Positions 12,096 through 49,809 are shown, numbered from the stretch's first letter. The stretch: 64,000 nt of DNA from Flavobacteriaceae bacterium (GCA_023264015.1 JALQTJ010000004.1:804-64803); one strand, 5' to 3'. The notes: generated by a model not told the origin, from the sequence alone. Made by a program: numbers and translations.

Positions 12096-12202
12096 AGTGT
12101 TGGTTTAATTGTTCGAAAAAATATAGGTAAAAACAGCTTCCGATGGTTTAAAGAACTGCTATTTTAGGCGAAATGACCTAGTTTTAACACTCTTAAAGCC
12201 AT

Positions 12203-13315: not shown

Positions 13316-13393
13316 AAACCTCCGGCTTTTTTAGAGAAGACAGCGATTATTTCTATTTTAATCCGATCGTGCTCTTTTTAGCTGATGTGACCC

Positions 13394-14347: not shown

Positions 14348-14350
14348 CTC

Positions 14351-16233: not shown

Positions 16234-16236
16234 ATT

Positions 16237-17712: not shown

Positions 17713-17716
17713 CCTT

Positions 17717-18622: not shown

Positions 18623-18626
18623 TTAT

Positions 18627-19631: not shown

Positions 19632-19642
19632 TTAAACCGCCA

Positions 19643-21520: not shown

Positions 21521-21529
21521 TTTAAAAGG

Positions 21530-23110: not shown

Positions 23111-23131
23111 AAGAATAGGGCTAATAAAACA

Positions 23132-24547
23132 TTAGCGCGTTCCCATAGGCATTGGTGATTGATAGGCTTCAAAAGGATAGCGGTCTGGAAGCACTAAGGT
23201 CCCCGTAGTAAAAATCAACGAGGACTCGAGTCCACTTTTAAAAGTTACTTCAATCAAAGAAGCCGTATATCCCTCAGCACTTTCTGGCGCCTCAATAGCA
23301 TATATTCCGTCGTCATTTTTGGGAATTAGGGTCTTTTGCCAATTTTGTCCGACCTCCCAAATTCTAAAATCTCTTGCGTTTAGATTGTTAATAGACCACA
23401 GAGCGATTTCATAGTCGGATTCTGCGTCTTTGATTAGAACTTCAAAACGATCAGAGTTAATGCTCCACTCCCATTGCGGAATCGACTGCTCATGCGCTAA
23501 GGCATCAAAAAAAGAGAAGACATTTGAGGTATTGTAAGAACCGGCAAGCCCATGATTGCCATTGGGTACGTATTGCAATTGCTTGTATCCCGGTAATTCG
23601 TCGAAATAGAACTTCCATGAATCGGTAACAAAAAATTCATCGATCGTTCCATTAACAATCAGTTTAGGCATCTCAAAACGCTCTTTAAACTCAAAAGGCT
23701 CTACAAATTCAAGTAGCCTGTCAAATTCCTCTGAACCGATCCATTCCATGATTCCATAATTGACATAATCCTGGACGGCAGGTGACCAATCTCCATAAAC
23801 TCGGTAGTGATGCTCAAATGACTCCTCGAGATTAAGCAGATCAATTACTAGTGGTGCCATCCCCATGACCCGATCATCAACTGCTGCAGTGGTCCAAGTC
23901 GTCCATCCTCTTTTAGAAGCCCCTGAAATAAAGAACTCTTGCACCGGCAAACTGCTCTTTGAAGTTACCGCTTGAACGACATCCATGGCCCTTGAAACCG
24001 CTCTTGTCATTGGAAATCGAGCCAACCATTCGGCCTGATCATCAGTCGCACCACGGGTTAAAAACTGCTTCCATCCGTAGGCGATTAAATCATCTTCATA
24101 GCGGTCAATGGTATCGCTAGTTCCAAAATGCATCGGTTGAAAAGGAACATTACTCACGTGAGCAATTACAGCTCTGGTTGATATGGCTTTTTCTACATTG
24201 AGGGTATCAAGCTGCCAAACCTCATCTGCTGAACTGCCCCCACCAATAAACAACAAAGCCTTATCGGTATCTATTTCATTCGGAACAGCAATGTCTACCC
24301 AATGCCACCATTCTGAAGGGGTCGTTTGTTCTTCAGCCATCCATTCTCCTGAAATCATTTTTGCCCTGTAAACTTTAGCTTCCATGTAATCGAGAGAATC
24401 CACGACAGAAAAACTGTAACCCGTGTTGTTTTTGACATAGGCCTGTAATTGCTCAATGGGCTGCAGCGTAACAGCTTGTTCGGCAGAAGTACTGCAAGAA
24501 TAGAGACCGATCAGTATAAGCGTGAACGCCAAGTAGAATTTCTTCAT
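23132..24547 (-). CDS. PhoPQ-activated pathogenicity-related (PqaA-type, alpha/beta-hydrolase-like) family protein, lipoprotein
   Basis: 471-aa ORF with lipobox LYSCS. The blocks LLFIGGGSSADE and ISGASKRGWTTWTTAA match what I recall of the PhoPQ_related family. Confidence 0.6.
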   Translation of the reverse strand: MKKFYLAFTLILIGLYSCSTSAEQAVTLQPIEQLQAYVKNNTGYSFSVVDSLDYMEAKVYRAKMISGEWMAEEQTTPSEWWHWVDIAVPNEIDTDKALLFIGGGSSADEVWQLDTLNVEKAISTRAVIAHVSNVPFQPMHFGTSDTIDRYEDDLIAYGWKQFLTRGATDDQAEWLARFPMTRAVSRAMDVVQAVTSKSSLPVQEFFISGASKRGWTTWTTAAVDDRVMGMAPLVIDLLNLEESFEHHYRVYGDWSPAVQDYVNYGIMEWIGSEEFDRLLEFVEPFEFKERFEMPKLIVNGTIDEFFVTDSWKFYFDELPGYKQLQYVPNGNHGLAGSYNTSNVFSFFDALAHEQSIPQWEWSINSDRFEVLIKDAESDYEIALWSINNLNARDFRIWEVGQNWQKTLIPKNDDGIYAIEAPESAEGYTASLIEVTFKSGLESSLIFTTGTLVLPDRYPFEAYQSPMPMGTR

Positions 24548-24604
24548 CTATCATTTGATTTTGATGTAAATTACTTATTTTAAAAGACTTACAAATACAT
24601 CTCA

Positions 24605-27124
24605 ATGGCATTTGCTCGGTATACTTTCATCGTCATAGTCTTTTTGCTTTGTTCGTGTAATCGAACTTCAGAAGGTAAACTAGAGCTGCATTATGTTATT
24701 CAATCTATCGATACGGTTCAAGAAAGAATGAATGTCACCTTCGAGTTGATTAACCATTCTTCTACAGCTTTCGAAGACGCTTCATGGGAGCTTCATTGGA
24801 ACCAGATGAAAGGCAGAATTGTTGCTTCGAGTCTGCCCGATGGCATTCAATACACGCATATTAACGGAGACAATTACATGAAGCTGCAATTCGACAGTCG
24901 CTGGGCTTTAAGACCAAAAGACACTTTAATCTTTGAATTGCAGCAGCAAGGAGTTATGGATCGATTAGCTATGGGTCCTATTGGTGTGTTTATTGCTCAA
25001 AACGACCTGATACGCGATGTTGAAACTACCATCATTTGGCAGAAGGCGAGGGGGTTATCAGAATTGGAGATTCCCACCCCAGAAAATCGTTTTGAACGAT
25101 TAGAAGGCATCTTTCTTCTGGCAAAGGACTCCATTCTTACCCTGGTTCCACAACCCCTTACTTTATCAATTACTGAAAACAAACGACACGCAGATACCCA
25201 CTGGTCCATTGATCTTGATTCCAACTTAAACGAGTATCGCCCTCAATTGATTTCGCTTATGAACGATCTATTCGAGCAGGGCCTAGATTTTGAAACGAAT
25301 AGACCGTCGAATTTTTTCATCCGCTACAATCCATCTCTCGACAGTGAGGCCTATCGCCTTGATATTACCCTAGGGTATATTACCCTTGAGAGTGCCTCAT
25401 ACCCAGGATTGGTCTATGGCCTTCAATCGCTGCATCAATTGATCGACAGCGCTGATCTTGAAGGTTCCACCTGGCCAATAGCACAGATCGAAGATGCCCC
25501 TCGCTTTGGTTATAGAGGATTTTTACTCGATATCGCGAGAAATTTCTACGGATTACCTAAGCTAAAGCAGATCGTAGACCTGATGAGTCGAATGAAATTG
25601 AATCACTTAGACTTGAGATTGACAGATGATGAAGGATGGCGGCTTGAGATCGACGGGCTACCTGAGTTGACCTCGGTTGCCTCAAATAGAGGATATACTA
25701 CCGATGAACGAGATCGACTAATTCCAATGTATGGGTCCGGAGCCACAGGTACGCCTCAAAGTAATGGCTACCTCACCGCATTAGAGTTCGAAGAACTTCT
25801 ATCCTATGCAAAGGTGCGAAATGTTCAAATCATACCTCAAATCAGCTTTCCTTCACATGCACGAGCAGCTGTAAAGGCAATGGAGAGTCGCTATTATCGC
25901 TATATGCAATTAAACGAACCCGAAAAGGCAAAAGAGTTTCTTCTCAGCGACTTCAAAGATAAAAGCAACTACAGATCTGCTCAAAATTATAACGACAATA
26001 TTGCTTGTATTTGCCTAGAAAGCGCGTATGCGTTTTATGAAAAAGTAATTTCTTCAGTAGAACAGAATTATAAAAATGCAGAGGTTCCACTTACTAAATT
26101 TAGCATTGGTGCCGATGAAGTTCCTTACGGGGCCTGGCAAGAATCTCCCATTTGCGCTAAGTATTTAAAAGAACAAGACACGAGTATTTCTTCTATATCC
26201 TCACTCTATACAAGCAACCTAAAACGCCTAAAAAATCTTTTTGATGCACGGGGTATCACTATGACAGGATGGGAAGATATTTTACTTGATCACTCTGAGA
26301 AAAGCCAGGGAGAAACACAAATAGCTTCAGAAACTTTAGAGTTCGAGGTGATCCCATATGTTTGGAACACCAGTTGGGGTGAAGGCCGAGAAGACATGAT
26401 TTACAAAATGGCAAATGCAGGATTCACCCCTGTGATGAGTAACTCATCGGCCTTTTACTTTGATATGACCGATGATAAAGACATCGAAAATTACGGACTA
26501 AACTGGTCTGGATATGTCGACTATTATGATACATGGGCGATTGATCCATTGAATGTATTTTCAAATCTGACATTGACCGAAAAACATGGTCTAACATCAT
26601 CCTACATCGCAGAACGTGTTAAGCTTGATCCCAAAAAGCAGGCAAACTTTCTAGGCATACAAGGACAGCTTTGGACTGAAACTGCCTTTAATGAAGACAT
26701 ACTCGATGAACTGCTCATGCCTAACCTCATCGTATTCTCAGAAAGAGCATGGGCCTCGTCACCCGAATGGCATCAAGAAGCCGATGCAGTGTTGCAAAAA
26801 GAAAGGAGCTTGAACGAATGGAATATATTCAGTAATACATTAGGCCAGCGATTGCTACCGTTAATAAGCCACTGGTATCCTACCCTCAACTATCACTTAC
26901 CCAAACCAGGAGCAAAAATTATAGAAGGCAAATGGCAGGTACGCTCCCATTTTCCAGGATTAGAAGTGCATTATAATTTTACTGATCGAGAACCAACCGT
27001 TTCAGATCCGATCTTTACAGCTGCCATTGACTCAACTAAGGGGCCACAGATTCATCTGCGCGTATTTGCCCCTAACGGTCGCGGAGGAAGATCTATTCAC
27101 ACCAAATCTCATTTGTCCTACTGA
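24605..27124 (+). CDS. GH20 beta-N-acetylhexosaminidase (chitobiase-like, with N-terminal accessory domains)
   Basis: 839-aa ORF with lipoprotein-like signal LLCSC. GH20 blocks are PRFGYRGFLLDIARNFYG, LNHLDLRLTDDEGWRLEI and the catalytic D-E pair in FSIGADEVPYGAW. Confidence 0.85.
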   Translation: MAFARYTFIVIVFLLCSCNRTSEGKLELHYVIQSIDTVQERMNVTFELINHSSTAFEDASWELHWNQMKGRIVASSLPDGIQYTHINGDNYMKLQFDSRWALRPKDTLIFELQQQGVMDRLAMGPIGVFIAQNDLIRDVETTIIWQKARGLSELEIPTPENRFERLEGIFLLAKDSILTLVPQPLTLSITENKRHADTHWSIDLDSNLNEYRPQLISLMNDLFEQGLDFETNRPSNFFIRYNPSLDSEAYRLDITLGYITLESASYPGLVYGLQSLHQLIDSADLEGSTWPIAQIEDAPRFGYRGFLLDIARNFYGLPKLKQIVDLMSRMKLNHLDLRLTDDEGWRLEIDGLPELTSVASNRGYTTDERDRLIPMYGSGATGTPQSNGYLTALEFEELLSYAKVRNVQIIPQISFPSHARAAVKAMESRYYRYMQLNEPEKAKEFLLSDFKDKSNYRSAQNYNDNIACICLESAYAFYEKVISSVEQNYKNAEVPLTKFSIGADEVPYGAWQESPICAKYLKEQDTSISSISSLYTSNLKRLKNLFDARGITMTGWEDILLDHSEKSQGETQIASETLEFEVIPYVWNTSWGEGREDMIYKMANAGFTPVMSNSSAFYFDMTDDKDIENYGLNWSGYVDYYDTWAIDPLNVFSNLTLTEKHGLTSSYIAERVKLDPKKQANFLGIQGQLWTETAFNEDILDELLMPNLIVFSERAWASSPEWHQEADAVLQKERSLNEWNIFSNTLGQRLLPLISHWYPTLNYHLPKPGAKIIEGKWQVRSHFPGLEVHYNFTDREPTVSDPIFTAAIDSTKGPQIHLRVFAPNGRGGRSIHTKSHLSY

Positions 27125-27127
27125 ACC

Positions 27128-27847
27128 ATGTCCTACCCTTATCACACCGCAGTAAATCATCTTCTAGACGCCATTGTTCAATCCAATAAAGAGTCCATAG
27201 CACAGGCCATTGATTGGTTTGCCGAAACCTTAATCACCGATCACTTGATTCATACCTTTGGCACAGGCCATTCACACATGATCGGATTAGAGCTCTTCGT
27301 TAGAGCTGGCGGATTGGCTAATGTGAACGCCATGCTCGATTCTACTGTAATGACCTCTGAAGGAGCTCGAAGGTCAGCCGAGATCGAACGGATCAGTGGT
27401 TTTTCAAAAGTGATCTGGAATCAGCATCAGATAGCTAAAGAAGATCTATTTATAATCATCTCCAATTCTGGACGCAACGCTATGCCTATAGAAATGGCTC
27501 AATTAGCTAAAGAAAATGGAAATAAAGTGATCGCGATCACCTCGCTCACTCAATCTAAAACGTTTCCTTCTAGAATTGCGAATCAACCCAAGTTGTATGA
27601 GATTGCTGATCTCGTTTTAGATAACAATGTGCCAACCGGTGACGGATTATTGAACATAGGAGCAGACCTAACAGGCGCAGCTTCTACGATTGCAGGCTGT
27701 TTTCTGGTCAACCTGATCGCCACCGAGGCGATGAAAAAAGCGCATTCACAAGGATTTCAACTGCCGATATATTACAGTCAAAATGTAGACGGATTTAGTA
27801 ATGAAGATCTATACAAACGTTTTAGTAGTCGAATCAAACACCTCTAA
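27128..27847 (+). CDS. single SIS-domain protein (UPF0309-like sugar-phosphate isomerase/binding family), no HTH
   Basis: 239-aa ORF starting 3 nt after the GH20 stop. The blocks FGTGHSHMIGLELFVRAGGL and IIISNSGRNAMPIE ... VIAITS are the SIS-fold signatures of the UPF0309 group. Confidence 0.65.
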   Translation: MSYPYHTAVNHLLDAIVQSNKESIAQAIDWFAETLITDHLIHTFGTGHSHMIGLELFVRAGGLANVNAMLDSTVMTSEGARRSAEIERISGFSKVIWNQHQIAKEDLFIIISNSGRNAMPIEMAQLAKENGNKVIAITSLTQSKTFPSRIANQPKLYEIADLVLDNNVPTGDGLLNIGADLTGAASTIAGCFLVNLIATEAMKKAHSQGFQLPIYYSQNVDGFSNEDLYKRFSSRIKHL

Positions 27848-29479
27848 CTATTTTATTTCTCGAACCCTCCTCTTCACAATTGGTATCTGTGAAGGTGCCA
27901 TGCTTAAAGATGATATACCTATATCAAGGAATTCTTCAGTAAAATCAGTATCAGCCGCCAATTCTCCGCATATACTAACCGCTTTCCCAAGTCTTTTTGC
28001 ATGGCTATTAAACTTCTCTATAATAGCAATTAATGTGGGCTTGACATCTTCAAAATAGATAGAAAGATTAACATTCGATCGATCTGCTGCCATTAAAAAT
28101 TGGGCCAAATCGTTAGTTCCAAAAGAGAAGAAATCAGCCAAGTCAACAAATTTTGTAGGATTGACGGCTACGTTAGGAACCTCAACCATAATTCCAAAAG
28201 GAGGCATTTTTAACTCCTTATACCCTTTTGTTTTCAAGTCCTTGAGTTCGTATTGTATTAAACTTTTAATCTCAATGCAATCCTTCTCTGTTGCAATCAT
28301 TGGACATAATATTCTTATCGAAAATTCTTTAGATATCCTTAATAAGGCTCTAATCTGAGGTTTAAGCAATAAATCATAATTTTTTAATCCCAATCGCAAA
28401 GCTCTGAGCCCCATAGCCGGATTTTCTTCATTGGCTACCGGCAAATAACTCAAGGGTTTATCTGAACCAAAGTCTAATAGGCGAATGGTGTGGGTAACCG
28501 CGTCGTATCCTTCTAATATAGAAACATAAACATCGTAGTGATCTTGCTCAGAGAGTGGTGTTTTTTGCTGCAAAAAGGCCAATTCAGTCCTAAACAACCC
28601 GATTCCATCCGCACCGTTCACTTTGGCCTGCTCAACCTCCAATAAACTTCCAACATTGGCCTCGATAGAAATTAATCTGCCACTCTTTGTAACGGCTTTC
28701 TCGACAGCCTTCAAACGCGCTTGTTCAAAGCGCTCTTGTAACACTCTTAATTTTTCCTGTGCGTTTTGAATCTGTTTTGTATTCGGATCCACTACAAACT
28801 CCCCCGCCTCGAGATCGAGCAAAGTTGGAGTTTCATTTTGAATTTCTAAGACCTGCTCACTCACTCCGATGAGTAATGGGATACTTAATGCCTGAGCGAG
28901 TATGGCGGTGTGATCGGTGAGCCCGCCTTCAATCAAAACAATACCGGCAATCGTATCGCTATTCATAGAAGACAACTGTTGAGGGGTCAACTGCCGCGAC
29001 ACGATTACGGCTTTATCTGTCCATGTGAGCTCTTGAATCTCCTGGCCAGATAACAGTCGTATCACAAGATCAGCAAGCATTCGAATGTCTTCTGAACGCG
29101 CACTGAGGTAGGGGTCGTTTAGCGCAATCAGGGTAGTGGCGTAGTCTTCTGTCACTCGAAAAAAACAATACGCTGCGTTTTTCGAACTGCTCTTTATTAG
29201 ATCTTTCGTTTGAACAACAAGCTCTGGGTCTTGTAGCATCTCATCATAGGCCTCGTATAATTCTAAGGCCTCTCCTTCAAGACGGCCAGTCATCGCAGCC
29301 TTCCATTGCCTTACATAATCGCGAGCCCCCGCTAAAGCCTTGTCGAATAGGGATTGTTCGTGTTTAAGGTCTTTGATACCGTGATCAGGAACAACAAGTT
29401 TGGGGGGTAATGCTACCTTTCGGGCAGGAGCAATGGCTATGCCTTTAGAAACTACTTTTCCGGTATACACCTCAGTCAT
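27848..29479 (-). CDS. ptsI: phosphoenolpyruvate-protein phosphotransferase (PTS Enzyme I)
   Basis: 543-aa ORF with the active-site His block GGLTDHTAILAQALSIP, the PEP-binding blocks GLFRTE, NPAMGLRA and FFSFGTNDL, and the Cys block ICGELAAD. Confidence 0.9.
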   Translation of the reverse strand: MTEVYTGKVVSKGIAIAPARKVALPPKLVVPDHGIKDLKHEQSLFDKALAGARDYVRQWKAAMTGRLEGEALELYEAYDEMLQDPELVVQTKDLIKSSSKNAAYCFFRVTEDYATTLIALNDPYLSARSEDIRMLADLVIRLLSGQEIQELTWTDKAVIVSRQLTPQQLSSMNSDTIAGIVLIEGGLTDHTAILAQALSIPLLIGVSEQVLEIQNETPTLLDLEAGEFVVDPNTKQIQNAQEKLRVLQERFEQARLKAVEKAVTKSGRLISIEANVGSLLEVEQAKVNGADGIGLFRTELAFLQQKTPLSEQDHYDVYVSILEGYDAVTHTIRLLDFGSDKPLSYLPVANEENPAMGLRALRLGLKNYDLLLKPQIRALLRISKEFSIRILCPMIATEKDCIEIKSLIQYELKDLKTKGYKELKMPPFGIMVEVPNVAVNPTKFVDLADFFSFGTNDLAQFLMAADRSNVNLSIYFEDVKPTLIAIIEKFNSHAKRLGKAVSICGELAADTDFTEEFLDIGISSLSMAPSQIPIVKRRVREIK

Positions 29480-29748
29480 TACGTACTCGCTGTGAAATTG
29501 GATGAAACCAGATTTTTTAAGCGGTCCAATGCCATATCTTCATCGGCCCCTGAAGCCTCAATGCGGATCTCTTGCTTTGATTTTACTCCGAGAGTCATAA
29601 GAGAAAGCATACTCTTACCATTAGCTTTCTTCTCATTGAAATACACCGAGATCTCAGATTCAAAAGAAGCAGCTGTCTTGGCGAAGAGTGATGCCGTTCT
29701 TGCGTGAAATCCAATAGGGTCATTTAATATGAGGGTGTGCTGTGTCAT
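29479..29748 (-). CDS. ptsH: phosphocarrier protein HPr
   Basis: 89-aa ORF with the His15 context GFHARTAS and the Ser46 context NGKSMLSLMTLGV. Its stop overlaps the ptsI start (TAATG). Confidence 0.9.
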   Translation of the reverse strand: MTQHTLILNDPIGFHARTASLFAKTAASFESEISVYFNEKKANGKSMLSLMTLGVKSKQEIRIEASGADEDMALDRLKNLVSSNFTAST

Positions 29749-30059
29749 GACAATGGTAGGAGTTGTTCAGCTTGATCCATGATGAGTGAAGGGTCTCGTA
29801 CCGCCTTGTTTACGCTTACATCAAGTATAGGCTTACCCTCAAATCGGTTTTTGCCTGAGATTGTCACCATTTTAGCAATAATGACAACATCGGCCTCATC
29901 GATCTGTTCGGCAGTAAGTTTGGTAGGAATTTTATGTCCTCCTTGTTCTTCTACAGCAATTGAATGTCCTCTTTTTTGAGCTTCTTTTGTCAAAGCCACA
30001 GCCGCCATCTTACTGTGCGCGACTCCGGCCAAACATGAAGTGACTAATGCAATTTTCAT
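29745..30059 (-). CDS. PTS fructose-family EIIB component
   Basis: MKIALVTSCLAGVAHSKMAA carries the phospho-Cys motif of Fru-type IIB (compare CPTGIAHTFMAA). I set the start at the ATG at 30057-30059 rather than the track start. The ATGA overlap links it to ptsH. Confidence 0.85.
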   Translation of the reverse strand: MKIALVTSCLAGVAHSKMAAVALTKEAQKRGHSIAVEEQGGHKIPTKLTAEQIDEADVVIIAKMVTISGKNRFEGKPILDVSVNKAVRDPSLIMDQAEQLLPLS

Positions 30060-30072
30060 AGGTTCAAATTCA

Positions 30073-31128
30073 TTATTCGTTTTCAGCATCTGCAGCCTCA
30101 ATCGCTGCGATATCTCTATTACTAAACTGTTTTAATATATTCGCGGTCAAGGCAGTAACTACTGAACCCACGACTACGGCAAGTACAAATACGAGGGGTT
30201 TGTTATAAAAAAACCACTGTGCGATTCCTAGCACTGGCGTGCTCAATTCGAGTAAAAAGATTCCGGCAATTAGACCTGCCGTTGTTGATCCGGCAACCGT
30301 AGCAATAGTAACTCTCAACAAGTCTCCTGCCGCTAATGGAATGACGATTTCGGTGAAGCCTCCGACTATGGCGTAGATCCATGAACTCTTAGCATAATTG
30401 CGTTCGGTTTTCGTGTACAACGACGGCTTCAAAAACGTAGCCAAGCACATTCCAAGTGGCGGAACGGTTACGATTGCGCCGCAAATACCTAATGGAACAT
30501 ACAATTCTAAGTCCATGACCGCAGTAGCAAAGGTGCTCTGCGTTTTACTAAAGGGTCCACCGTAATCTACCCCTCCGAGAAACCCCATTACAGCACCCAT
30601 AATCGCTGATCCTTGCTCACCTAGATTGGACAATATTTGAGATAAAAACACCATAAGTGCTGCAATCGGAGGGCCTAATAGGTATACCATAAATAGCACC
30701 ACCACCAAAGTGCTCAACACCGGAGCCAAAAATCCCCAGGTACTTTGAAGTATCGAAGGCAACTCTACCTTCAATAGCATGTACGTCACGTATCCAACTA
30801 AAATACCGCCAACTAGGGCACCCAGATATCCAGTGTCAATCTGTTGAGCTAGAATACCGATGATAAATCCTGGAGCTATACCTGGAGTTTCTGAAATACT
30901 ATATGCAGTATAGGCCGCCATGATAGGAACAAAAAAAGTAAGTCCGATAGTACCTACATCCTTGAAGACCTTCCAAATTGAATCATCTGCAACGTTGGTT
31001 CCTCCTAGGACCGCGAGACTTCCGACCATACCTCCGATGAGTAGTATGGGTAGCATATACGAAACCCCAGTGCGAAAATGCACCCCGGTGTTTCTGAATA
31101 TCTCTTTCGTTTCACTCCAAAAATTCAT
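30073..31128 (-). CDS. PTS fructose-family EIIC permease
   Basis: 351-aa polytopic membrane ORF with the hallmark Fru-family N-terminal block TGVSYMLPILLIGG. Confidence 0.85.
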   Translation of the reverse strand: MNFWSETKEIFRNTGVHFRTGVSYMLPILLIGGMVGSLAVLGGTNVADDSIWKVFKDVGTIGLTFFVPIMAAYTAYSISETPGIAPGFIIGILAQQIDTGYLGALVGGILVGYVTYMLLKVELPSILQSTWGFLAPVLSTLVVVLFMVYLLGPPIAALMVFLSQILSNLGEQGSAIMGAVMGFLGGVDYGGPFSKTQSTFATAVMDLELYVPLGICGAIVTVPPLGMCLATFLKPSLYTKTERNYAKSSWIYAIVGGFTEIVIPLAAGDLLRVTIATVAGSTTAGLIAGIFLLELSTPVLGIAQWFFYNKPLVFVLAVVVGSVVTALTANILKQFSNRDIAAIEAADAENE

Positions 31129-31138
31129 AAGCTAAGAG

Positions 31139-31576
31139 TTAATGATTCGCAAAAGACGCTTGAATTTCTTGTTCGGTTTGAGCTTTTTCCCAGACCGCTC
31201 TAACCTCTTCTTCTAAAGCTAATGTGGCAATTTGAGACATGAGCTCAATGTGATTGTTATCTTCACCTTCATTCGCATCAGGAATAGCCAAAGCGAGAAT
31301 AAAACGTACCGGATCATCGTCTTGATCCCAGGTTAAGTCGGTAGTGCGTGCAAATGCAAAACCAGGTGCTATAACAGTATTTGAAGCCGCATGAGGAATG
31401 GCAATACCATAACCACAATAGGTCGAAAGCGTCGCCTCTCGGGCCAAAACTTCAGCAGCATAAACTTGCGCATCGCGAATAACCCCTGATTGAGCCAAAC
31501 CTTGTGCGATAGCTTGAATCGCTGCCTGTTTGGAGTCGACTTGAAGCGAAAGATTTATATAAGCTGGGGCTGGCAT
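31139..31576 (-). CDS. PTS EIIA component (fructose/mannitol type, PTS_EIIA_2)
   Basis: 145-aa ORF with the phospho-His block GYGIAIPHA and a length typical of a stand-alone IIA(Fru/Mtl/Ntr). Confidence 0.8.
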   Translation of the reverse strand: MPAPAYINLSLQVDSKQAAIQAIAQGLAQSGVIRDAQVYAAEVLAREATLSTYCGYGIAIPHAASNTVIAPGFAFARTTDLTWDQDDDPVRFILALAIPDANEGEDNNHIELMSQIATLALEEEVRAVWEKAQTEQEIQASFANH

Positions 31577-31581
31577 AGCAT

Positions 31582-32292
31582 TTAGTTAGAGGGTTGTTGG
31601 GCTTTTTGAATAGCGGTTGCGCATCTCTTTAATCCAGCAGTAATACCCTCAGGATCTTTGAAAATAGCAGAGGATAAGACCACCACATCAGGTTCACATT
31701 CGATGAGGGGCGCTAAATTATCAGCTCGAATTCCGCCGTCGATCGCAATCTCACATTTTGGATTTTTCTCATCCACTAACTTTCGGGCACGTCTCAAGAG
31801 ATCAAGACATGAGCGTCTCCAACCCCAATTGTCCTTTCCGTCAGTCTCATCTACCCCATGCACAACGATATGCAATCGATCTATATCGTATATCGACTCT
31901 TCGACAAATGATAAAGGAGTGTAAAGACCAATGGTCAATCCAATTTTCATCTTGCGTTCGCGACACCAATTGATGATGTAAGCGAGAGGCGCTCCAATAA
32001 AATGTTCAGCTGGAATGATCAGCATATTAGTGCCTACCTGAGCCAACTTTTCTATGAATAGCAAGTCACAGGTCTCTGTATAAATATGACACTCAATTGG
32101 CTTATCTGTATAGGGACGGATCCCTTCAATAATTTGGTGCCCCCCCATCAACTGCATGTTCTTCAGGTCATGCATATCAGCAGCGTCAGAGTGAATGTAA
32201 TCTGCTCCGGCCTCTGTAGCTTCTTTAACAATATCAGCTAGGTGCCCGTAATCTACGTGGGCTAATCCCGCTGCAATTTTAATATCTCTCAT
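31582..32292 (-). CDS. ribulose-phosphate 3-epimerase-like (RPE/AlsE superfamily) sugar-phosphate epimerase, divergent
   Basis: 236-aa ORF. GADYIHSDAADMHD aligns to the RPE motif GAD-x-H-x-D-x-M-D-G-H, IECHIY aligns to D-V/C-H-L-M, and EIAIDGGI aligns to E-V-D-G-G. The metal and acid-base positions are kept, but the conserved Met positions are Ala and Tyr. Confidence 0.65.
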   Translation of the reverse strand: MRDIKIAAGLAHVDYGHLADIVKEATEAGADYIHSDAADMHDLKNMQLMGGHQIIEGIRPYTDKPIECHIYTETCDLLFIEKLAQVGTNMLIIPAEHFIGAPLAYIINWCRERKMKIGLTIGLYTPLSFVEESIYDIDRLHIVVHGVDETDGKDNWGWRRSCLDLLRRARKLVDEKNPKCEIAIDGGIRADNLAPLIECEPDVVVLSSAIFKDPEGITAGLKRCATAIQKAQQPSN

Positions 32293-32372
32293 TGTTAGTA
32301 GTTAAGGTGTTGTAATGCGAAATGCATCACTGCTAGATTGAATGGGTTGAATAAAAGTTAGATCTTTTTAAA

Positions 32373-32388
32373 TGTAACACTTTTTACA
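32373..32388. promoter_or_regulatory. inverted repeat TGTAA-N6-TTACA (CRP/FNR-family-like operator candidate) upstream of the PTS operon
   Basis: The sequence tgtaacactttttaca lies 81-96 nt upstream of the ATG at 32292. Its 5-6-5 geometry matches the CRP site TGTGA-N6-TCACA. The half-sites are short, so it could be a chance occurrence. Confidence 0.25.
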
Positions 32389-32429
32389 ACCCTCTCCTTA
32401 TTCATCCTTTTTAACCTGTATAGGGCCAT

Positions 32430-32461
32430 AAAAAAAGTCGCCCCTAAAGGGCGACTTTTTT
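32430..32461 (-). terminator. rho-independent terminator (bidirectional architecture) after the 131-aa lipoprotein gene
   Basis: The sequence is aaaaaaa-GTCGCCC-ctaaa-GGGCGAC-tttttt: a perfect 7-bp GC-rich stem with a 5-nt loop, flanked by A7 and T6. It lies 24 nt downstream of the stop at 32485. Confidence 0.8.
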
Positions 32462-32484
32462 CACAAAAAGATTTATGACTTCGT

Positions 32485-32880
32485 TTAGCGTTTTGTGGTA
32501 ATAATAATCACTCCGCCGGCTCCCATGAATCCGTATTGTGCGAGGTCTTGAGGATTTTTCAAAACACGTATTCTATCGATTTCAAGTGGATTGATCGTTG
32601 AGGCCGCCTGAGAAAAATCTCCAACCTGTGTGCCGTCAATGATAAAGAGTGCCTGCTTAGGATTATTTACACTACTCACTCCACGCAAAAATACTTGAGC
32701 GCTCGAACCGTTTCCGCGAATCTGTAAACCTGATTGCTGACGCAAGCGATCAAGCAAACTCAAATTTCCTAGATTTTGAGATTCAGTTTCTTTTGCAGCC
32801 GCTGTTGTGGTTTTCGTGCTTGAGCAGCTTGCTAGAAGCACTACGGCAAACAAGGCAACGAGGATTCTATGTGTTTTCAT
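32485..32880 (-). CDS. small lipoprotein consisting of a stand-alone TonB-dependent-receptor plug-like segment
   Basis: 131-aa ORF with lipobox LLASCSS. LQIRGNGSS ... FIIDGTQVGD ... IDRIRVLKNPQDLAQYGFMGAGGVIIITTKR matches the N-terminal plug motifs of SusC/TonB receptors. No beta-barrel follows. Confidence 0.6.
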   Translation of the reverse strand: MKTHRILVALFAVVLLASCSSTKTTTAAAKETESQNLGNLSLLDRLRQQSGLQIRGNGSSAQVFLRGVSSVNNPKQALFIIDGTQVGDFSQAASTINPLEIDRIRVLKNPQDLAQYGFMGAGGVIIITTKR

Positions 32881-32940
32881 AATGAGTTTATCTACTAATT
32901 GAGGTGAAAAGGTAGGTTTTAAAAAACATATTTAAGGCTT

Positions 32941-32959
32941 AGACACTGTTAAAGTGTCT
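32941..32959. promoter_or_regulatory. perfect 7-5-7 inverted repeat AGACACT-gttaa-AGTGTCT in a divergent promoter region
   Basis: Read directly from the DNA. It lies between the divergent starts at 32880 (-) and 33036 (+). No upstream gene could terminate here, so an operator or 5' leader structure is more likely than a terminator. Confidence 0.3.
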
Positions 32960-33035
32960 CTGTTTGAGTGTTAAAATGGTCGCGATTAACGGTTTGCTCT
33001 TTGACACTATGAGAGACTATCTTATCTTTTCATCT

Positions 33036-34103
33036 ATGACCATGCCAAAAACACTTAACGTCCTCATTGTAGGGTGTGGTAATATGGGAGCTTCTCACGC
33101 AAAGGCCTACGAAGAGCATCCTGGATACCAAATATGCGGTCTGGTATCACGCGGCAAAAGTAAAGAGCTTCTCAATGCTGAGCTGCAAGGCGACTATCAA
33201 TGCTTTGACGATTATGCAGATGCCTTAGCGCAAAGCAAGCCTGAAGTCGTATGCATTTCAACCTACCCCGAAACCCACGAACCTTTCACGCTAATGGCGC
33301 TTGAAGAAGGCTGCCATGTCTTTCTTGAAAAACCAATTGCGACGACGGTTGAAGGCGGTAGACGTATCGTAGAAGCTGCAAATTTGGCCAAAAAGAAAGT
33401 AGTCGTCGGATACATCTTAAGACACCATATCATCTGGAAACGGTTTATTGAAGAGGCTCAAAAAATGGGGAAACCCTTGGTAATGCGAATGAACCTGAAT
33501 CAACAGAGCCAAGGTTATATGTGGGATGTACACCGCAGTCTTATGAACTCTTTAAGCCCGATTGTAGATTGTGGAGTTCACTATTTAGACGTTATGTGTC
33601 AAATGACCCAAGCCAAGCCGATCAGTGTCTCGGCAATCGGAGCGCGCTTGACCGATGACATTCCTGCAGATAATTACAATTACGGTCAACTACAGATTCG
33701 TTTTGACGACGGATCGGTGGGCTGGTACGAGGCCGGATGGGGACCAATGGTAAGTGAAACCGCCTTTTTTGTCAAGGACGTATTCGGTCCAAAAGGAAGT
33801 GTCTCGCTCACCCAAGATCAACAGCGGTCAGACTGTGTAGACGGGCATTCTAAGGCTGATCTTATGCTCATACATCACGCTGATATCGACAGCAACAACA
33901 CCTTTTTGAAGAAAGACGAGTATATTCGATTCGAGCACAGTCCAGAGCACCAAGAATTGTGTGACAACGAGCAGGCCTTTTTGTATGAAGCTATCATAGA
34001 AGATCGTGACTTGAGCAGCCACCTGAATGACGCGATTACAAGCCTTCAAATAGCCCTAGCTTGCGACCAATCCGTAAAAGAAGAACGAACTATTTTGCTT
34101 TAA
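33036..34103 (+). CDS. Gfo/Idh/MocA-family NAD(P)-dependent oxidoreductase (cytoplasmic)
   Basis: Rossmann motif LNVLIVGCGNMGASH and EKP motif (FLEKPI). I moved the start to the ATG at 33036 (MTMPKTLNV); the track start at 32964 is a TTG extension with no homology signal. Confidence 0.75.
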   Translation: MTMPKTLNVLIVGCGNMGASHAKAYEEHPGYQICGLVSRGKSKELLNAELQGDYQCFDDYADALAQSKPEVVCISTYPETHEPFTLMALEEGCHVFLEKPIATTVEGGRRIVEAANLAKKKVVVGYILRHHIIWKRFIEEAQKMGKPLVMRMNLNQQSQGYMWDVHRSLMNSLSPIVDCGVHYLDVMCQMTQAKPISVSAIGARLTDDIPADNYNYGQLQIRFDDGSVGWYEAGWGPMVSETAFFVKDVFGPKGSVSLTQDQQRSDCVDGHSKADLMLIHHADIDSNNTFLKKDEYIRFEHSPEHQELCDNEQAFLYEAIIEDRDLSSHLNDAITSLQIALACDQSVKEERTILL

Positions 34104-34111
34104 TACTAATT

Positions 34112-35587
34112 ATGAAAAACCTTTTTACCCTTTGCGCTCTGTCTATAGCCGCCCTGAGCATGGCACAGCGAAGCCTTCCGTCAGACACCTTGAGCATCAA
34201 AAACGATCGCATTAGAGTCGGATCAGAATGGCTAGATTACTCGGTTGAAGTCGGAACACAACCGGTTTGGGACACCGATGGCAGTGAAATTGCCTACTTA
34301 CAGTACACCTACTACAAACGCTCTGGTGTCAACAGCGAAACCCGACCACTGATCATGAGCTTTAATGGCGGACCCGGATCTGGTTCTGTTTGGATGCACT
34401 TGGCCTATACAGGTCCTAAAGTGTTGCGGGTAGACGATGAAGGGTTTCCTATCCAACCCTATGGAGTAAAAGACAACCCCAATACCGTACTCACTGATGC
34501 AGATATCGTATACATCAATCCTGTGAATACCGGTTACTCAAGAACCATCCCATTAAGCGGTAAAGAAGTCGATCGAAAAAAGTTCTTCGGTATTGACGCT
34601 GACATTACCTATCTCGCCGAATGGCTCAACACCTTCGTCACACGTCACAACAAATGGCGCGCACCGAAATACATTATTGGAGAAAGCTACGGAGGTACCC
34701 GAGTGATGGGCCTCGCCCTTACACTCCAAGAATCACAATGGATGTACCTCAACGGGGTCATTATGGTGAGCCCGGCCGATTATCAGGTATTACGCGTAGG
34801 AGGTCCTGTTTCAGAGGCACTCAACGTCCCTTATTATTCAGCAGCAGCCTGGTACCACCAGCAGCTTTCAAGTGACCTTCAGCAACTGTCTTTAGAAAAA
34901 CTACTCGAGATCACCGAAGCTTTCACGGTAGATACCTTATTGCCTGCACTCGCTAAAGGCGGATCTCTATCACCGGGAGACCGCGATCAAATCGCCTCAG
35001 ATATGGCGCGTTATACTGGGCTCAGCAAATCGGATATTCTGGCGCTCAACCTCTCGGTTCCGACCGGCTATTTCTGGAAGAACTTACTCAAAGACGAAGG
35101 CTATACGGTGGGCCGCCTAGACAGCCGTTACAAAGGGGTCGACAAGGTAGGTGTAGGAACGCGTCCTGAATACAATTCAGAACTCACCTCGTGGCTCCAT
35201 AGCTTCACCCCTGCCATCAATTACTACTACAACGAAGTACTCGGGTTCAGAACTGATGTGAAGTATAACATGTTTGGCCCTGTTAGACCCTGGGAAGATG
35301 ACCGCGTCAACACCCGTGAAGACCTGAGAGCAGCGATGGCCGAAAACCCTTATTTACACGTTTTGAATCAATCAGGCTATTTCGACGGTGCAACCACCTA
35401 TTTCAATGCCAAATACACGCTGTGGCAGATTGATCCTAGTGGTAAATTCAATGACCGTCTTCAATTTAAAGGATACGAATCAGGGCATATGATGTACCTG
35501 CGCGCAGAAGACCTTAAGGCCGCCAATGAAGACCTAAAGCGCTTCATTCAACAAACCCAAACTAAAGGAAATCCCGCTAAGTACTAG
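34112..35587 (+). CDS. peptidase S10 (serine carboxypeptidase) family protein, secreted
   Basis: FNGGPGSGSVW and the catalytic-Ser block IIGESYGG, plus a C-terminal GYESGHMMY His block. Signal peptide MKNLFTLCALSIAALSMAQ from the ATG at 34112; the track start at 34061 overlaps the previous gene. Confidence 0.75.
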   Translation: MKNLFTLCALSIAALSMAQRSLPSDTLSIKNDRIRVGSEWLDYSVEVGTQPVWDTDGSEIAYLQYTYYKRSGVNSETRPLIMSFNGGPGSGSVWMHLAYTGPKVLRVDDEGFPIQPYGVKDNPNTVLTDADIVYINPVNTGYSRTIPLSGKEVDRKKFFGIDADITYLAEWLNTFVTRHNKWRAPKYIIGESYGGTRVMGLALTLQESQWMYLNGVIMVSPADYQVLRVGGPVSEALNVPYYSAAAWYHQQLSSDLQQLSLEKLLEITEAFTVDTLLPALAKGGSLSPGDRDQIASDMARYTGLSKSDILALNLSVPTGYFWKNLLKDEGYTVGRLDSRYKGVDKVGVGTRPEYNSELTSWLHSFTPAINYYYNEVLGFRTDVKYNMFGPVRPWEDDRVNTREDLRAAMAENPYLHVLNQSGYFDGATTYFNAKYTLWQIDPSGKFNDRLQFKGYESGHMMYLRAEDLKAANEDLKRFIQQTQTKGNPAKY

Positions 35588-35602
35588 CGGGATTTTCCCT
35601 TT
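35569..35602 (+). terminator. candidate intrinsic terminator overlapping the S10 peptidase stop codon
   Basis: The sequence is AAATCCCGCTA-agtac-TAGCGGGATTT: a perfect 11-bp stem with a 5-nt loop, followed by tcccttt. The T tract is interrupted, hence moderate confidence. Confidence 0.45.
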
Positions 35603-35628
35603 AAAAACAACCTAACACCGCCACCCAA

Positions 35629-37794
35629 ATGCAAAGAATACCCCTGCTATTCGCCCTGTTATTCTCTGGTATTTCGATTCAACTAAGCGCACAAGTAAAC
35701 GCTAAAGATTACCGCCTAGCCATTGAAAAGATCAGTGAAAAAATAGTCATTGATGGGGTTCTAGACGAGCCTGCATGGGATCGTGCACAAGTAGCCAAAG
35801 ACTTTTTCATGATCACCCCGGTAGATACAGGAAGGGCGCGTCAGCACTCAGAGGCGCGCGTTGCATTCGACGATGAATACCTCTATATCTCGGTAATTTT
35901 TTTCAATAATGCGGTGAAAGGGCCTTACGTGGTAGAGTCATTTAAGCGTGATTTTTCATTCGGAAAAAACGACAATCTCTTGATCGCCATAGATCCGTTT
36001 GACAATCAAACTACAGGCTTCTCTTTTGGTCTCAACGCCTACGGTGCACAATGGGACGGCACCATGTTCGAAGGAAAAGGAGTAGACCTTAACTGGGACA
36101 CCAAGTGGTACTCAGAGGTGCGCTTCGATGAAGATAAATGGGTCGGTGAAATGGCTATCCCATTTAAATCGATACGCTACGATGAAACCATCAAAGAGTG
36201 GGGTATCAACTTCGGTCGCCTTGATCTAAAGGCCAGCGAAAAATCGAGCTGGGCTCCTGTTCCACGACAATTTCCGTCCGTATCCTTGGCTTTTGCAGGG
36301 CGATTGGTGTGGGACACTCCACCACCGAAACAAGGGGTAAATGCATCTATCATTCCTTATGTGTCAAGTATCTCAGAAGGAACCCACCTGACCGAGGACG
36401 ACAGCAAGGCGAAGGTCGGTGCTGACCTCAAATACACCCTTACCACGGCTTTGAATCTCGATGTCACCCTCAATCCAGATTTCTCTCAGGCCGAGGTCGA
36501 TCAACAAGTGACTAACCTCGATCGCTTCGAGCTGTTCTTTCCTGAAAGACGTCAATTCTTCCTTGAAAACGCAGACCTTTTTTCGAATTTCGGGTACCGA
36601 ACTATCCGTCCTTTTTTCTCGAGGCGGATTGGGCTTAATGTTCCCATTGTGGCCGGTGCTCGCCTCAGTGGAAACCTCGATGAGAACTGGCGCGTGGGGC
36701 TGATGAATATCCAAACTAAGGCAGACGAGCTCCAGGGGCTAGGAGCCGAAAACTACGGAGTGATCAGTCTTCAACGGAAGGTTCAAGAACGCTCAAACAT
36801 CAACTTTTTACTCGTCAATAAAGAGGCGCCAAATACAGACCCATCGGTTTCAGAGCGCTACCACCGAAACGCCGGGGTCGAATACAATTACTTCTCTGAA
36901 AACAATCAATACAACGGAAAAGTAATGGCCCTTCGTTCGATCAATCCAGATCCGGCAAAAACAGGAACAGTTATCGCCTCTCACTTAGAACATCAATCGA
37001 TCAGATGGAACTGGCGGGTGCAACAAGAATACGTTTCAAATACCTTTAGTGCAGACGTCGGCTTTGTACCGCGAACCAACTATCACAAGTTCGAAGGATC
37101 ACTCGGGCATCTCGTCTACACCGCTTCTAAAACCAATCCGCTACTTTCTCACGGACCAAGCTACACCCGTACGTATTTCTTTGATCTCGATGGGCACAAG
37201 ACCGATCAGATCGACACCTTTAGTTATATTTTCAACTTTCAAAATCGCAGTCGATTTATTGTGGCCGGAGCGCGCAGTTCCATTGATTTATTGAGTGATT
37301 TTGATCCGCTTCGAAACGGCATTGGGGTGCTCAAGGCAGGAACAAATCACGAATGGACCAATCTTCGTTTATCATACGATTCAAAACCGCAAAACCTATT
37401 CACCTATTCACTCGATGCCATTCTTGGAGGCTATTATGCCCAAGGAAAACGCAATGCCTTTATAGGCGAATTTGGATACAGAGTTCAGCCGATTTTAGAG
37501 CTGAGTTCGGTGATCAATTACAATCAATTCGATCTCCCTCAACCCTGGAAAGAGCAGTCTTTTTGGCTTGTCGGATTAAAAGCCAACCTCACCCTTACCG
37601 ACAATTTATTCTTCTCAAACCTCTACCAATACAACGAGCAAGTTGACCTTTGGAACTTCAACTCTAGATTGCAATGGCGCTACAAACCAGCGTCTGATAT
37701 TTTCTTAGTTTTCAATAGTAACGAAGTGACCATCCCCAGCTTCTCAAGCGGATGGAATCTCACCTTCAAGATCAACTATTGGCTCAACCTATAA
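35629..37794 (+). CDS. CBM9-like carbohydrate-binding domain plus DUF5916 (putative outer-membrane beta-barrel) protein
   Basis: 721-aa ORF with a signal peptide. The N-terminal IDGVLDEPAWDRAQVAKDFFMITPVDTG ... AFDDEYLYISV block is typical of CBM9/DUF5916 proteins. The long C-terminal region has alternating beta-strand-like sequence. Confidence 0.6.
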   Translation: MQRIPLLFALLFSGISIQLSAQVNAKDYRLAIEKISEKIVIDGVLDEPAWDRAQVAKDFFMITPVDTGRARQHSEARVAFDDEYLYISVIFFNNAVKGPYVVESFKRDFSFGKNDNLLIAIDPFDNQTTGFSFGLNAYGAQWDGTMFEGKGVDLNWDTKWYSEVRFDEDKWVGEMAIPFKSIRYDETIKEWGINFGRLDLKASEKSSWAPVPRQFPSVSLAFAGRLVWDTPPPKQGVNASIIPYVSSISEGTHLTEDDSKAKVGADLKYTLTTALNLDVTLNPDFSQAEVDQQVTNLDRFELFFPERRQFFLENADLFSNFGYRTIRPFFSRRIGLNVPIVAGARLSGNLDENWRVGLMNIQTKADELQGLGAENYGVISLQRKVQERSNINFLLVNKEAPNTDPSVSERYHRNAGVEYNYFSENNQYNGKVMALRSINPDPAKTGTVIASHLEHQSIRWNWRVQQEYVSNTFSADVGFVPRTNYHKFEGSLGHLVYTASKTNPLLSHGPSYTRTYFFDLDGHKTDQIDTFSYIFNFQNRSRFIVAGARSSIDLLSDFDPLRNGIGVLKAGTNHEWTNLRLSYDSKPQNLFTYSLDAILGGYYAQGKRNAFIGEFGYRVQPILELSSVINYNQFDLPQPWKEQSFWLVGLKANLTLTDNLFFSNLYQYNEQVDLWNFNSRLQWRYKPASDIFLVFNSNEVTIPSFSSGWNLTFKINYWLNL

Positions 37795-37803
37795 GCCGTT
37801 CTT

Positions 37804-40407: not shown

Positions 40408-40447
40408 GCGAAAGAATAACTATCTTAAAGTATTGATAAACAGAAAG

Positions 40448-49778: not shown

Positions 49779-49809
49779 CTTGGGATAGTACGATTTAAAG
49801 GGTTGGGTT

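Follow-up and report, generated by a model that had tools for sequence, protein, structure and literature searches.

A putative self-contained fructose-family phosphotransferase system with a divergent sugar-phosphate epimerase in marine Flavobacteriaceae

We analysed a 64,000-nt stretch of DNA from an uncultured marine member of the Flavobacteriaceae (phylum Bacteroidota; JALQTJ010000004.1:804-64803, assembly GCA_023264015.1), here called the window, and in particular a predicted sugar phosphotransferase system (PTS) encoded at 27848-32292. Six tightly packed open reading frames (ORFs) lie here on the minus strand. They encode Enzyme I (EI, the phosphoenolpyruvate (PEP)-protein phosphotransferase; 27848..29479, 543 aa), the phosphocarrier HPr (29479..29748, 89 aa), a fructose-type Enzyme IIB (29745..30059, 104 aa), a fructose-family permease, Enzyme IIC (30073..31128, 351 aa, with about 8-10 hydrophobic segments by hydropathy), an Enzyme IIA of the Fru/Mtl/Ntr type (31139..31576, 145 aa) and a divergent member of the Rpe/AlsE family of sugar-phosphate 3-epimerases (31582..32292, 236 aa). 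The genes, coordinates, spacers and overlaps reported in a first-pass annotation of the same DNA were all read back from the sequence. The stop codon of IIB overlaps the start of HPr in ATGA (29748-29745), the stop codon of HPr overlaps the EI start at 29479 in TAATG (29481-29477), and the intergenic spacers are 5, 10 and 13 nt. The 13-nt spacer holds only if IIB starts at ATG 30059, the likely start, rather than at the mechanical ORF start TTG 30101; public gene calls also give an IIB of 104 aa. Family scans of the window revealed no regulator gene adjoining the operon and no 1-phosphofructokinase (FruK), two absences that had been noted at first pass; the sole PfkB kinase of the window is IolC, within an inositol operon. 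Rfam and tRNA scans of the window found no RNA element.

The phosphorelay proteins belong to recognised families and carry the canonical motifs, and every motif listed at first pass was found. EI scores 381 bits against TIGR01417 (cutoff 341.7), contains PF05524, PF00391 and PF02896, and is a member of the Enzyme I family. Its phosphorylated residue His190, in GGLTDHTAILAQ (codon 28912-28910), and its catalytic Cys504, in CGELAAD, align with His189 and Cys502 of Escherichia coli PtsI. The active-site motif is GGxTDH, the E. coli counterpart being GGRTSH, and both this motif and CGE are kept in all aligned loci. HPr, at 84.8 bits against TIGR01003 (cutoff 47.9), is likewise a family member, and its His15 (in GFHARTAS) and Ser46 (in KSMLSLM) are both conserved among loci. 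IIB matches PF02302 (62 bits) and PF25554, falls slightly under the cutoff of TIGR00829 (73.8 bits, cutoff 76.85), and has its phospho-Cys9 in CLAGVAHS, conserved in all loci. IIA matches PF00359 (110 bits) and reaches 91.1 bits against TIGR00848 (cutoff 103.5); its phospho-His62 in IAIPHA is also conserved in all loci. The phosphorylation and catalytic sites of EI, HPr, IIB and IIA are thus retained in every one of about 35 aligned loci, distant ones included. No stop codon or frameshift was found in the operon genes of any locus by stop-to-stop analysis. The apparently broken EI genes of three loci (L020, L022 and L025; related loci are given L numbers throughout) were short ORFs produced by an ATG-first rule, and stop-to-stop analysis shows intact copies. 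All parts being intact, the first-pass view of a complete PTS that looks functional appears sound.

The permease is less easily placed. IIC passes the cutoff of TIGR01427 (192.5 bits, cutoff 157.55), which is a subfamily-domain model and not an equivalog, and its top equivalog match, PRK10478 (205 bits), lies under the cutoff of 426. The top NCBIfam match of IIB is PRK10474, a fructose-like IIB (89 bits). Against the FruA equivalog PRK10712, with a cutoff of 793, the IIC part scores 157 bits and the IIB part 60 bits. Within its own clade IIC shows at least 56% identity, and 30-38% identity to other Fru-type IICs. Judged by these scores, the Enzyme II appears to belong to the Fru family by fold and relay chemistry, but to a divergent branch of it.

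The sixth protein matches PF00834 over its full length (88 bits). It falls below the Rpe equivalog TIGR01163 (92.7 bits, cutoff 212.6) and the AlsE equivalog NF007266 (64.9 bits, cutoff 271), and its best match in the PDB is the Rpe structure 1tqj (75 bits), with AlsE 3ct7 at 46 bits. The Rpe metal and acid-base residues His34, Asp36, His69 and Asp185 are kept, as are the DGG and SSAIF phosphate-binding motifs. There is in addition a clade-specific loop, VVHGVDETDGKDNWGWRR, and this loop and the catalytic residues are near-invariant across phyla. The predicted enzyme would therefore have the Rpe family fold yet differ from the housekeeping Rpe.

The IIC protein was scanned against one genome per GTDB species. 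This yielded 28 loci of 76-99% identity, all in marine Flavobacteriaceae or 'Bacteroidetes' metagenome-assembled genomes (MAGs) or single-amplified genomes, including the MS024-2A lineage, plus Maribacter halichondriae. As all 28 genome matches are Flavobacteriaceae/Bacteroidota, the phylum assigned to the window at first pass is right. Searches by tblastn and ORF clustering showed the order epimerase-IIA-IIC-IIB-HPr-EI in 28 of 28 loci, and in 26 of them two further genes lie directly upstream of the epimerase on the same strand, with gaps of 10-21 nt. These encode a lyase of the tryptophanase (TnaA) type and an iron-containing alcohol dehydrogenase (ADH), and the full order, found in about 57 loci overall, is lyase, ADH, epimerase, IIA, IIC, IIB, HPr, EI. 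The first-pass description of an operon led by the epimerase thus applies to a shortened form. A metagenome scan gave 79 further loci. Wherever enough upstream DNA was available, loci with an IIC of this clade carried lyase, ADH and epimerase, except L037 and L071/72, and the same partnership occurred in none of about 40 outgroup loci with other Fru-type IICs. When the lyase and the epimerase were used as protein queries, near-identical marine sequences filled the results, which speak to abundance rather than to outgroup context.

We defined cluster membership by an IIC of this clade (about 47% identity or more), an epimerase with the VVHGVDETDGKDNWGWR loop, and EI and HPr genes of its own, along with the lyase and an aldehyde oxidoreductase. 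The window operon has the first three but lacks the lyase and oxidoreductase, and on this comparison of gene content it is a derived, shortened member of the eight-gene cluster.

In more distant lineages the genes are kept together in shuffled orders. A Bacteroidales MAG (L029) has transketolase-epimerase-lyase-ADH-IIA-IIC-IIB-HPr-EI followed by an M28 peptidase, and L030 has IIA-IIC-IIB-lyase-aldehyde dehydrogenase (ALDH)-HPr-EI-epimerase with a RusR-like sugar regulator. L031 has ADH-lyase-regulator-epimerase-IIA-IIBC-HPr-EI, the regulator being of the PAS_6/HTH_22 type, while in L033/34 the genes overlap in the order IIA-epimerase-lyase-ADH-IIC-IIB-HPr-EI, followed by glycoside hydrolase family 29 (GH29), metzincin-like and GH3 genes. 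A sigma-54-type activator lies upstream of the cluster in L033, and L035 has a PRD regulator. One relative of L029 (L037, Ga0105099_10002223) carries IIA-IIC-IIB-HPr-EI without epimerase, lyase or ADH, and has instead a 725-aa protein and a sigma-54-type regulator, a further form of the cassette that exists in nature. Among the eight proteins, pairwise distances correlate (r = 0.70-0.95), which indicates a shared history and evolution as one unit.

These results bear on whether the operon is an ordinary fructose PTS, forming fructose 1-phosphate for a FruK encoded elsewhere and having the epimerase, lyase and ADH as unrelated neighbours. That is how it is named in public databases (NCBI, JGI and KEGG give 'PTS fructose transporter subunit IIC' or fruA), and the paper describing M. 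halichondriae, in which PTS genes, tnaA and 'hxlA' were unique to this species among the relatives compared, also interpreted them as serving fructose uptake; the TIGR01427 score of IIC agrees with this. However, TIGR01427 is no equivalog, the FruA equivalog is missed by a wide margin, the IIC clade is far from other Fru IICs, and FruK was found in none of about 60 cluster loci, nor was a DeoR or PRD regulator, regulators being confined to the distant lineages described above. Epimerase, lyase and ADH moreover stay interleaved with the PTS genes despite the shuffling of gene order, and co-evolve with them. We therefore consider fructose uptake a rather improbable function, and the public 'fructose PTS' annotation is probably wrong. 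The non-fructose substrate proposed at first pass is likely, given the divergence of IIC and the constant presence of a divergent Rpe-like epimerase.

The cluster genes evolve at very different rates. Mean p-distances are 0.16 for the epimerase, 0.24 for the lyase, 0.25 for IIC, 0.31 for IIB, 0.42 for ADH, 0.49 for HPr, 0.52 for IIA and 0.57 for EI, making the epimerase the slowest and EI the fastest. Identity to L003 is 56% for EI, against 97% for IIC and about 85% for the flanking genes. General PTS proteins are ordinarily the conserved ones, and the rapid evolution of EI, HPr and IIA agrees with EI and HPr being dedicated to one Enzyme II. As every lineage encodes its own EI and HPr with the cluster, the cassette can operate in a host that has no other PTS. 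A regulatory phosphorelay of the PTS-Ntr kind, without transport, would be a different way to account for PTS proteins in a phylum otherwise lacking sugar PTSs (PMC2405797), and the IIA domain family does include PtsN (TIGR01419, 52 bits for the window's IIA). Such a role is highly improbable here, since a membrane-embedded IIC and a IIB with its cysteine are present and among the most constrained genes (dN/dS 0.02-0.05). PTS-Ntr systems, to our knowledge, have neither IIB nor IIC.

The shortened form in the window can be traced to a deletion. In blastn alignments with L001, window position 32316 corresponds to L001 position 8812, and 32357 to 6251; 2,560 bp of L001 (6252-8811), containing the lyase and ADH genes, are replaced in the window by a scar of about 40 bp (32317..32356, minus strand). 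Look-ups of exact proteins recovered the same junction in 14 independent public assemblies from several studies. One contig, L120, encodes an epimerase protein identical to that of the window, yet has the lyase and ADH. This establishes the deletion as real and shows that the population contains the two forms side by side. We had also considered whether the 2.7-kb difference from L001 represented the missing barrel of a truncated SusC, but the extra DNA encodes the lyase and ADH.

The region that precedes the lyase in L001-L003 is kept in the window, where it now stands ahead of the epimerase (32357..32429, minus strand). It contains, at 32377-32367, a sequence resembling the Bacteroidota -7 box, TAcaTTTA, and similar TAnnTTTA sequences occur upstream of the lyase in other clades. 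From this resemblance, the segment probably holds the promoter of the ancestral operon. The 5' boundary of the operon is marked by a terminator hairpin, GTCGCCCTTTAGGGGCGAC, followed by TTTTTTT (32430..32455, minus strand), which belongs to an upstream Plug-domain gene; an equivalent hairpin is found in L001-L003.

Within the population, polymorphism was counted only on contigs in which the junction was verified. Of the changes in the six genes, 136 were synonymous and 27 non-synonymous (pN/pS 0.059), and stop codons were absent. Relative to L001, dN/dS was 0.010 for the epimerase, 0.020 for IIC, 0.05 for IIB, 0.16 for EI, 0.17 for HPr and 0.21 for IIA. The six-gene form is under purifying selection. 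Polymorphism carried by the deletion haplotype may nevertheless predate the deletion or have arrived by recombination. The spread of dS along the region, 0.02 to 0.85, shows that recombination has occurred, and pN/pS is no strict proof of selection after the deletion; this weighs against the interpretation of the six genes as a working system that we develop below.

Such inherited or imported polymorphism would also suit the view that the window operon is a decaying, non-functional remnant of a pathway needing all eight genes, and so would the presence of lyase and ADH in essentially all other lineages, interleaved in some with the PTS genes. Against decay, the six genes are intact in 14 contigs with the junction and show the excess of synonymous changes just described; the excision was precise and kept the native upstream region in front of the epimerase, and epimerase and PTS without lyase are found in other lineages too (L035 and L071). 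On balance we think it unlikely that the operon is a remnant. A stable haplotype lacking lyase and ADH indicates that epimerase plus PTS and lyase plus ADH are separable modules.

The lyase of the full cluster is a full-length member of the tryptophanase/tyrosine phenol-lyase (TPL) family. It scores 679 bits against NF009709 but below the cutoffs of both TnaA equivalogs and of TPL, and matches TnaA 8sbg (508 bits) and TPL 1c7g (500 bits) in the PDB. Every TnaA/TPL catalytic residue is present. The sites that determine specificity are tryptophanase-like in 55-56 of 56 sequences, with Asp at the position of TPL Thr124, Leu for Arg381 and His for Phe448, and next to the pocket there are the invariant, clade-specific changes T125S, T126F and A187N. 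With 51-79% identity within the group and 45-53% to the solved enzymes, these lyases form a subfamily of their own. The iron-containing ADH resembles short-chain aldehyde/alcohol enzymes, and in L030 an ALDH takes its place, suggesting that the pathway handles an aldehyde.

Other genes accompany the cluster in some lineages, among them GH29, GH3, M28 peptidase, transketolase and GMC/TIM-barrel oxidoreductases. In the MS024-2A clade the gene immediately upstream of the lyase, on the same strand, encodes a homologue of indoleamine 2,3-dioxygenase (IDO, PF01231; L013 4829-6226, also L014, L028, L050 and L064), and by its family match this would add another enzyme of tryptophan/indole metabolism to the PTS cluster. 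Next to EI, at least 12 loci encode a protein of about 538 aa with the metzincin motif HEIGHNLGLKH (for example L020 4559-6175 and L033 12026-13642). Copies from a marine flavobacterium and from a sediment lineage with a GC content of 0.57 are 39% identical over 514 aa. Searches of NCBIfam and the PDB gave no match for this protein, and Pfam only a weak one, to Reprolysin_3. We rejected the idea that it is a RusR-like regulator, as it has the metzincin motif and shows no similarity to the L030 protein.

The ADH and the epimerase could also be joined in a pentitol or pentulose route. Here the PTS would take up a pentitol, the ADH would be a polyol-phosphate dehydrogenase yielding a pentulose 5-phosphate, and the Rpe-like enzyme would form xylulose 5-phosphate for transketolase. 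The transketolase gene directly upstream of the epimerase in L029, the RusR-like regulator of L030 (RusR itself coming from a pentose locus) and the Rpe family as best match of the epimerase are in keeping with this, and pentitol PTS operons of Listeria and Lactobacillus and the E. coli sgc operon pair a PTS with an Rpe paralogue. But the route leaves the invariant tryptophanase-type lyase unexplained, and the ALDH that takes the place of ADH in L030 cannot oxidise a polyol phosphate. The ADH, as noted, looks like a short-chain aldehyde/alcohol enzyme, and the window haplotype retains PTS and epimerase without it. We accordingly regard a pentitol pathway as improbable.

The reading we favour, with a probability of roughly 0.55, is that the region encodes a self-contained Fru-family PTS for one ketose-like substrate other than fructose, together with a sugar-phosphate epimerase, and that it is a six-gene derivative of the eight-gene cluster. 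Phosphate would pass from PEP to His190 of EI, His15 of HPr, His62 of IIA and Cys9 of IIB, and from there to the sugar during its passage through the permease IIC. Fructose is probably not this sugar, and a ketose-like sugar or sugar moiety is likelier. The metal-dependent Rpe/AlsE-like 3-epimerase may then convert the sugar phosphate into fructose 6-phosphate or an intermediate of the pentose phosphate pathway, and FruK would not be needed if central sugar phosphates are reached in this way. The transketolase beside the cluster in L029 and the RusR-like sugar regulator of L030 speak for this reading too. In the full cluster, the lyase and aldehyde oxidoreductase presumably act either on an amino-acid portion of indole type within the nutrient or on its co-substrate. 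In the window haplotype this module has been excised, leaving epimerase and PTS under what is probably the original promoter.

Several points weigh against this reading. The members of the cluster are known from sequence alone, and nothing in the window names the substrate of the PTS. Fru-family PTSs usually phosphorylate fructose at C1, and if the product were a ketose 1-phosphate, epimerisation alone would not give entry into glycolysis. The interleaving of lyase and ADH with PTS genes elsewhere suggests a single pathway, in which case the six-gene operon might be metabolically incomplete. A simple sugar route also leaves the exchange of ADH for ALDH in L030 unexplained.

The lyase can be accommodated if the nutrient of the eight-gene cluster is a glycosylated or ketosylated tryptophan-type amino acid, for example C-mannosyl-tryptophan. 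The PTS would import the conjugate and phosphorylate its sugar, the lyase would remove pyruvate and ammonia, and the aldehyde oxidoreductase and Rpe-like enzyme would process the sugar fragment; the window haplotype would be a variant reduced to the free sugar. Eukaryotic glycoproteins or exudates are candidate sources. Marine sponges and ascidians are reported to contain C-mannosyl-tryptophan, for which no bacterial pathway was known as of 2021. The tryptophanase-like residues of the lyase, the IDO homologue, the metzincin-like and M28 peptidases, GH29 and GH3, and the sponge-derived Maribacter are hints, but hints only, and we consider the proposal doubtful. Were it correct, no PTS for such a glyco-amino acid and no functional PTS pathway in Bacteroidota would have been described before, and the cluster might supply the bacterial route for C-mannosyl-tryptophan that is still missing.

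Whatever its substrate, the ketose-like PTS that we favour can be compared with known systems. E. coli Frw, Fry and Frv have own EI/HPr-like proteins, lie beside non-glycolytic enzymes such as peptidases, and have unknown substrates. Like the window operon they have separate Fru-family IIB and IIC proteins, and PRK10478 (205 bits) and PRK10474 (89 bits) are the top NCBIfam matches of the window proteins. These scores are nevertheless far under the equivalog cutoffs of 426 and 135, IIC identity is about 34%, the partners here are an Rpe-like epimerase, a TnaA-type lyase and an iron-containing ADH, and the host belongs to the Bacteroidota. AlsE, the 3-epimerase for D-allulose (psicose) 6-phosphate, and Rpe paralogues of PTS operons such as E. 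coli SgcE, offer a parallel for the epimerase: metal-dependent 3-epimerases by which the phosphate of an unusual ketose enters central sugar metabolism with no need of 1-phosphofructokinase. The window epimerase shares their catalytic His/Asp residues and phosphate-binding motifs, but has its own invariant loop and scores only 65 bits against the AlsE cutoff of 271. The partners of AlsE are an ABC transporter and a kinase, and no PTS. Although the lyase belongs to the tryptophanase/TPL family, its gene sits in a PTS operon rather than in one of the tnaCAB type, and is missing from the window. A conceptual precedent exists in the Salmonella D-glucosaminate (dga) system, in which a PTS product is processed by an eliminating lyase dependent on pyridoxal phosphate (PLP). 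The sigma-54-type activator upstream of the cluster in L033 adds to the likeness, which is one of resemblance and not of membership; dga has a mannose-family PTS, an unrelated family of PLP enzyme and a KDPG aldolase.

Much algal organic matter is consumed by marine Flavobacteriaceae, which in textbook accounts take up sugars through SusC/D and secondary transporters and not by way of a PTS. The first-pass statement that PTSs are absent or very rare in Bacteroidota agrees with a 2008 survey, in which they were absent from the phylum (PMC2405797). The cluster is nevertheless common in ocean Flavobacteriaceae, where a PTS cassette that supplies EI and HPr itself has a wide distribution and is abundant. 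It had also been allowed at first pass that the operon might prove common and already characterised in close relatives. It is common, yet uncharacterised. Literature searches for the cluster, and for PTSs in flavobacteria of the MS024-2A type, returned nothing relevant beyond the M. halichondriae paper; searches for indole or fructose phenotypes of cultured hosts returned nothing relevant either, and the combination of PTS, tryptophanase-like enzyme, aldehyde oxidoreductase and unusual epimerase was found in no described pathway. Identifying the substrate would reveal a nutrient linking sugar and amino-acid (indole) metabolism in the ocean, and would also show how a PTS is installed in a phylum without one. 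The full cluster is present in M. halichondriae and M. algicola, both available in culture, which makes direct testing feasible, and the natural deletion haplotype provides a ready-made genetic contrast.

Horizontal acquisition of the operon had been raised at first pass as one of two alternatives, the other being a lineage-restricted PTS. GC content, GC at third codon positions, codon usage and tetranucleotides of the operon gave no signal of recent transfer, but the patchy distribution of the cluster within Maribacter and the GC range of 0.28-0.60 among host contigs point to older gain and loss. The surroundings are themselves mosaic. Relative to the closest genomes (L001 and L002; window 21000-38000), dS is 0.017 for the GH20 hexosaminidase and SIS genes, 0.17-0.25 for the PTS genes, 0.57 for the epimerase and 0.85 for the Plug gene. 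This roughly 50-fold spread between neighbouring genes indicates a recombination mosaic.

On the EI side of the operon, alignments delimit a strain-variable island of about 15 kb (about 13300-28385) with the iol operon, a symporter, a PhoPQ-related protein, GH20 and SIS. It is missing in sister contigs L115, L117, L118, L121 and L122, where EI abuts genes for a DAO-family oxidoreductase and a 3-keto-disaccharide hydrolase (window 11142-13315), and a recombination breakpoint in the population lies inside the 3' part of EI, near 28386. The myo-inositol catabolic operon, which is complete, and the sodium:solute symporter gene that follows it (13394-23110, plus strand) include genes for an IolJ-like class II aldolase, IolB, IolC, a CoA-acylating methylmalonate-semialdehyde dehydrogenase (MMSDH, IolA), IolE, IolG and IolD; IolB, IolC (375 bits, cutoff 300), IolD, IolG and MMSDH pass their NCBIfam cutoffs. 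The GH20 and SIS genes, proposed at first pass as partners of the operon, are confined to L001, L002, L060 and some members of the window's own population. Being island-borne and strain-variable, this pair was rejected as an amino-sugar branch of the pathway.

On the other side, a stand-alone lipoprotein-like gene consisting solely of a TonB-receptor Plug domain (32485-32880, minus strand, 131 aa) has a SusC/RagA signature, no beta-barrel and its own terminator. It is conserved in L001, L003, L052, L058 and L060, and is not a truncated SusC, as it is complete in relatives at 131-132 aa and ends in a terminator of its own. Beyond it, 32964-40407 and 40433-41563 encode two GFO/IDH/MocA oxidoreductases, an S10 serine carboxypeptidase, a DUF5916/CBM9 protein and a GH3 enzyme with a PA14 domain; this block is shared with L001-L003 and may be a separate glycan-utilisation group. 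Further along, at 47568-51594, a fused trehalose-6-phosphate synthase/phosphatase gene (GT20 and Trehalose_PPase, minus strand) lies beside a GH15 trehalase-like gene (plus strand), and from their domains the two would form a divergent pair for trehalose synthesis and breakdown.

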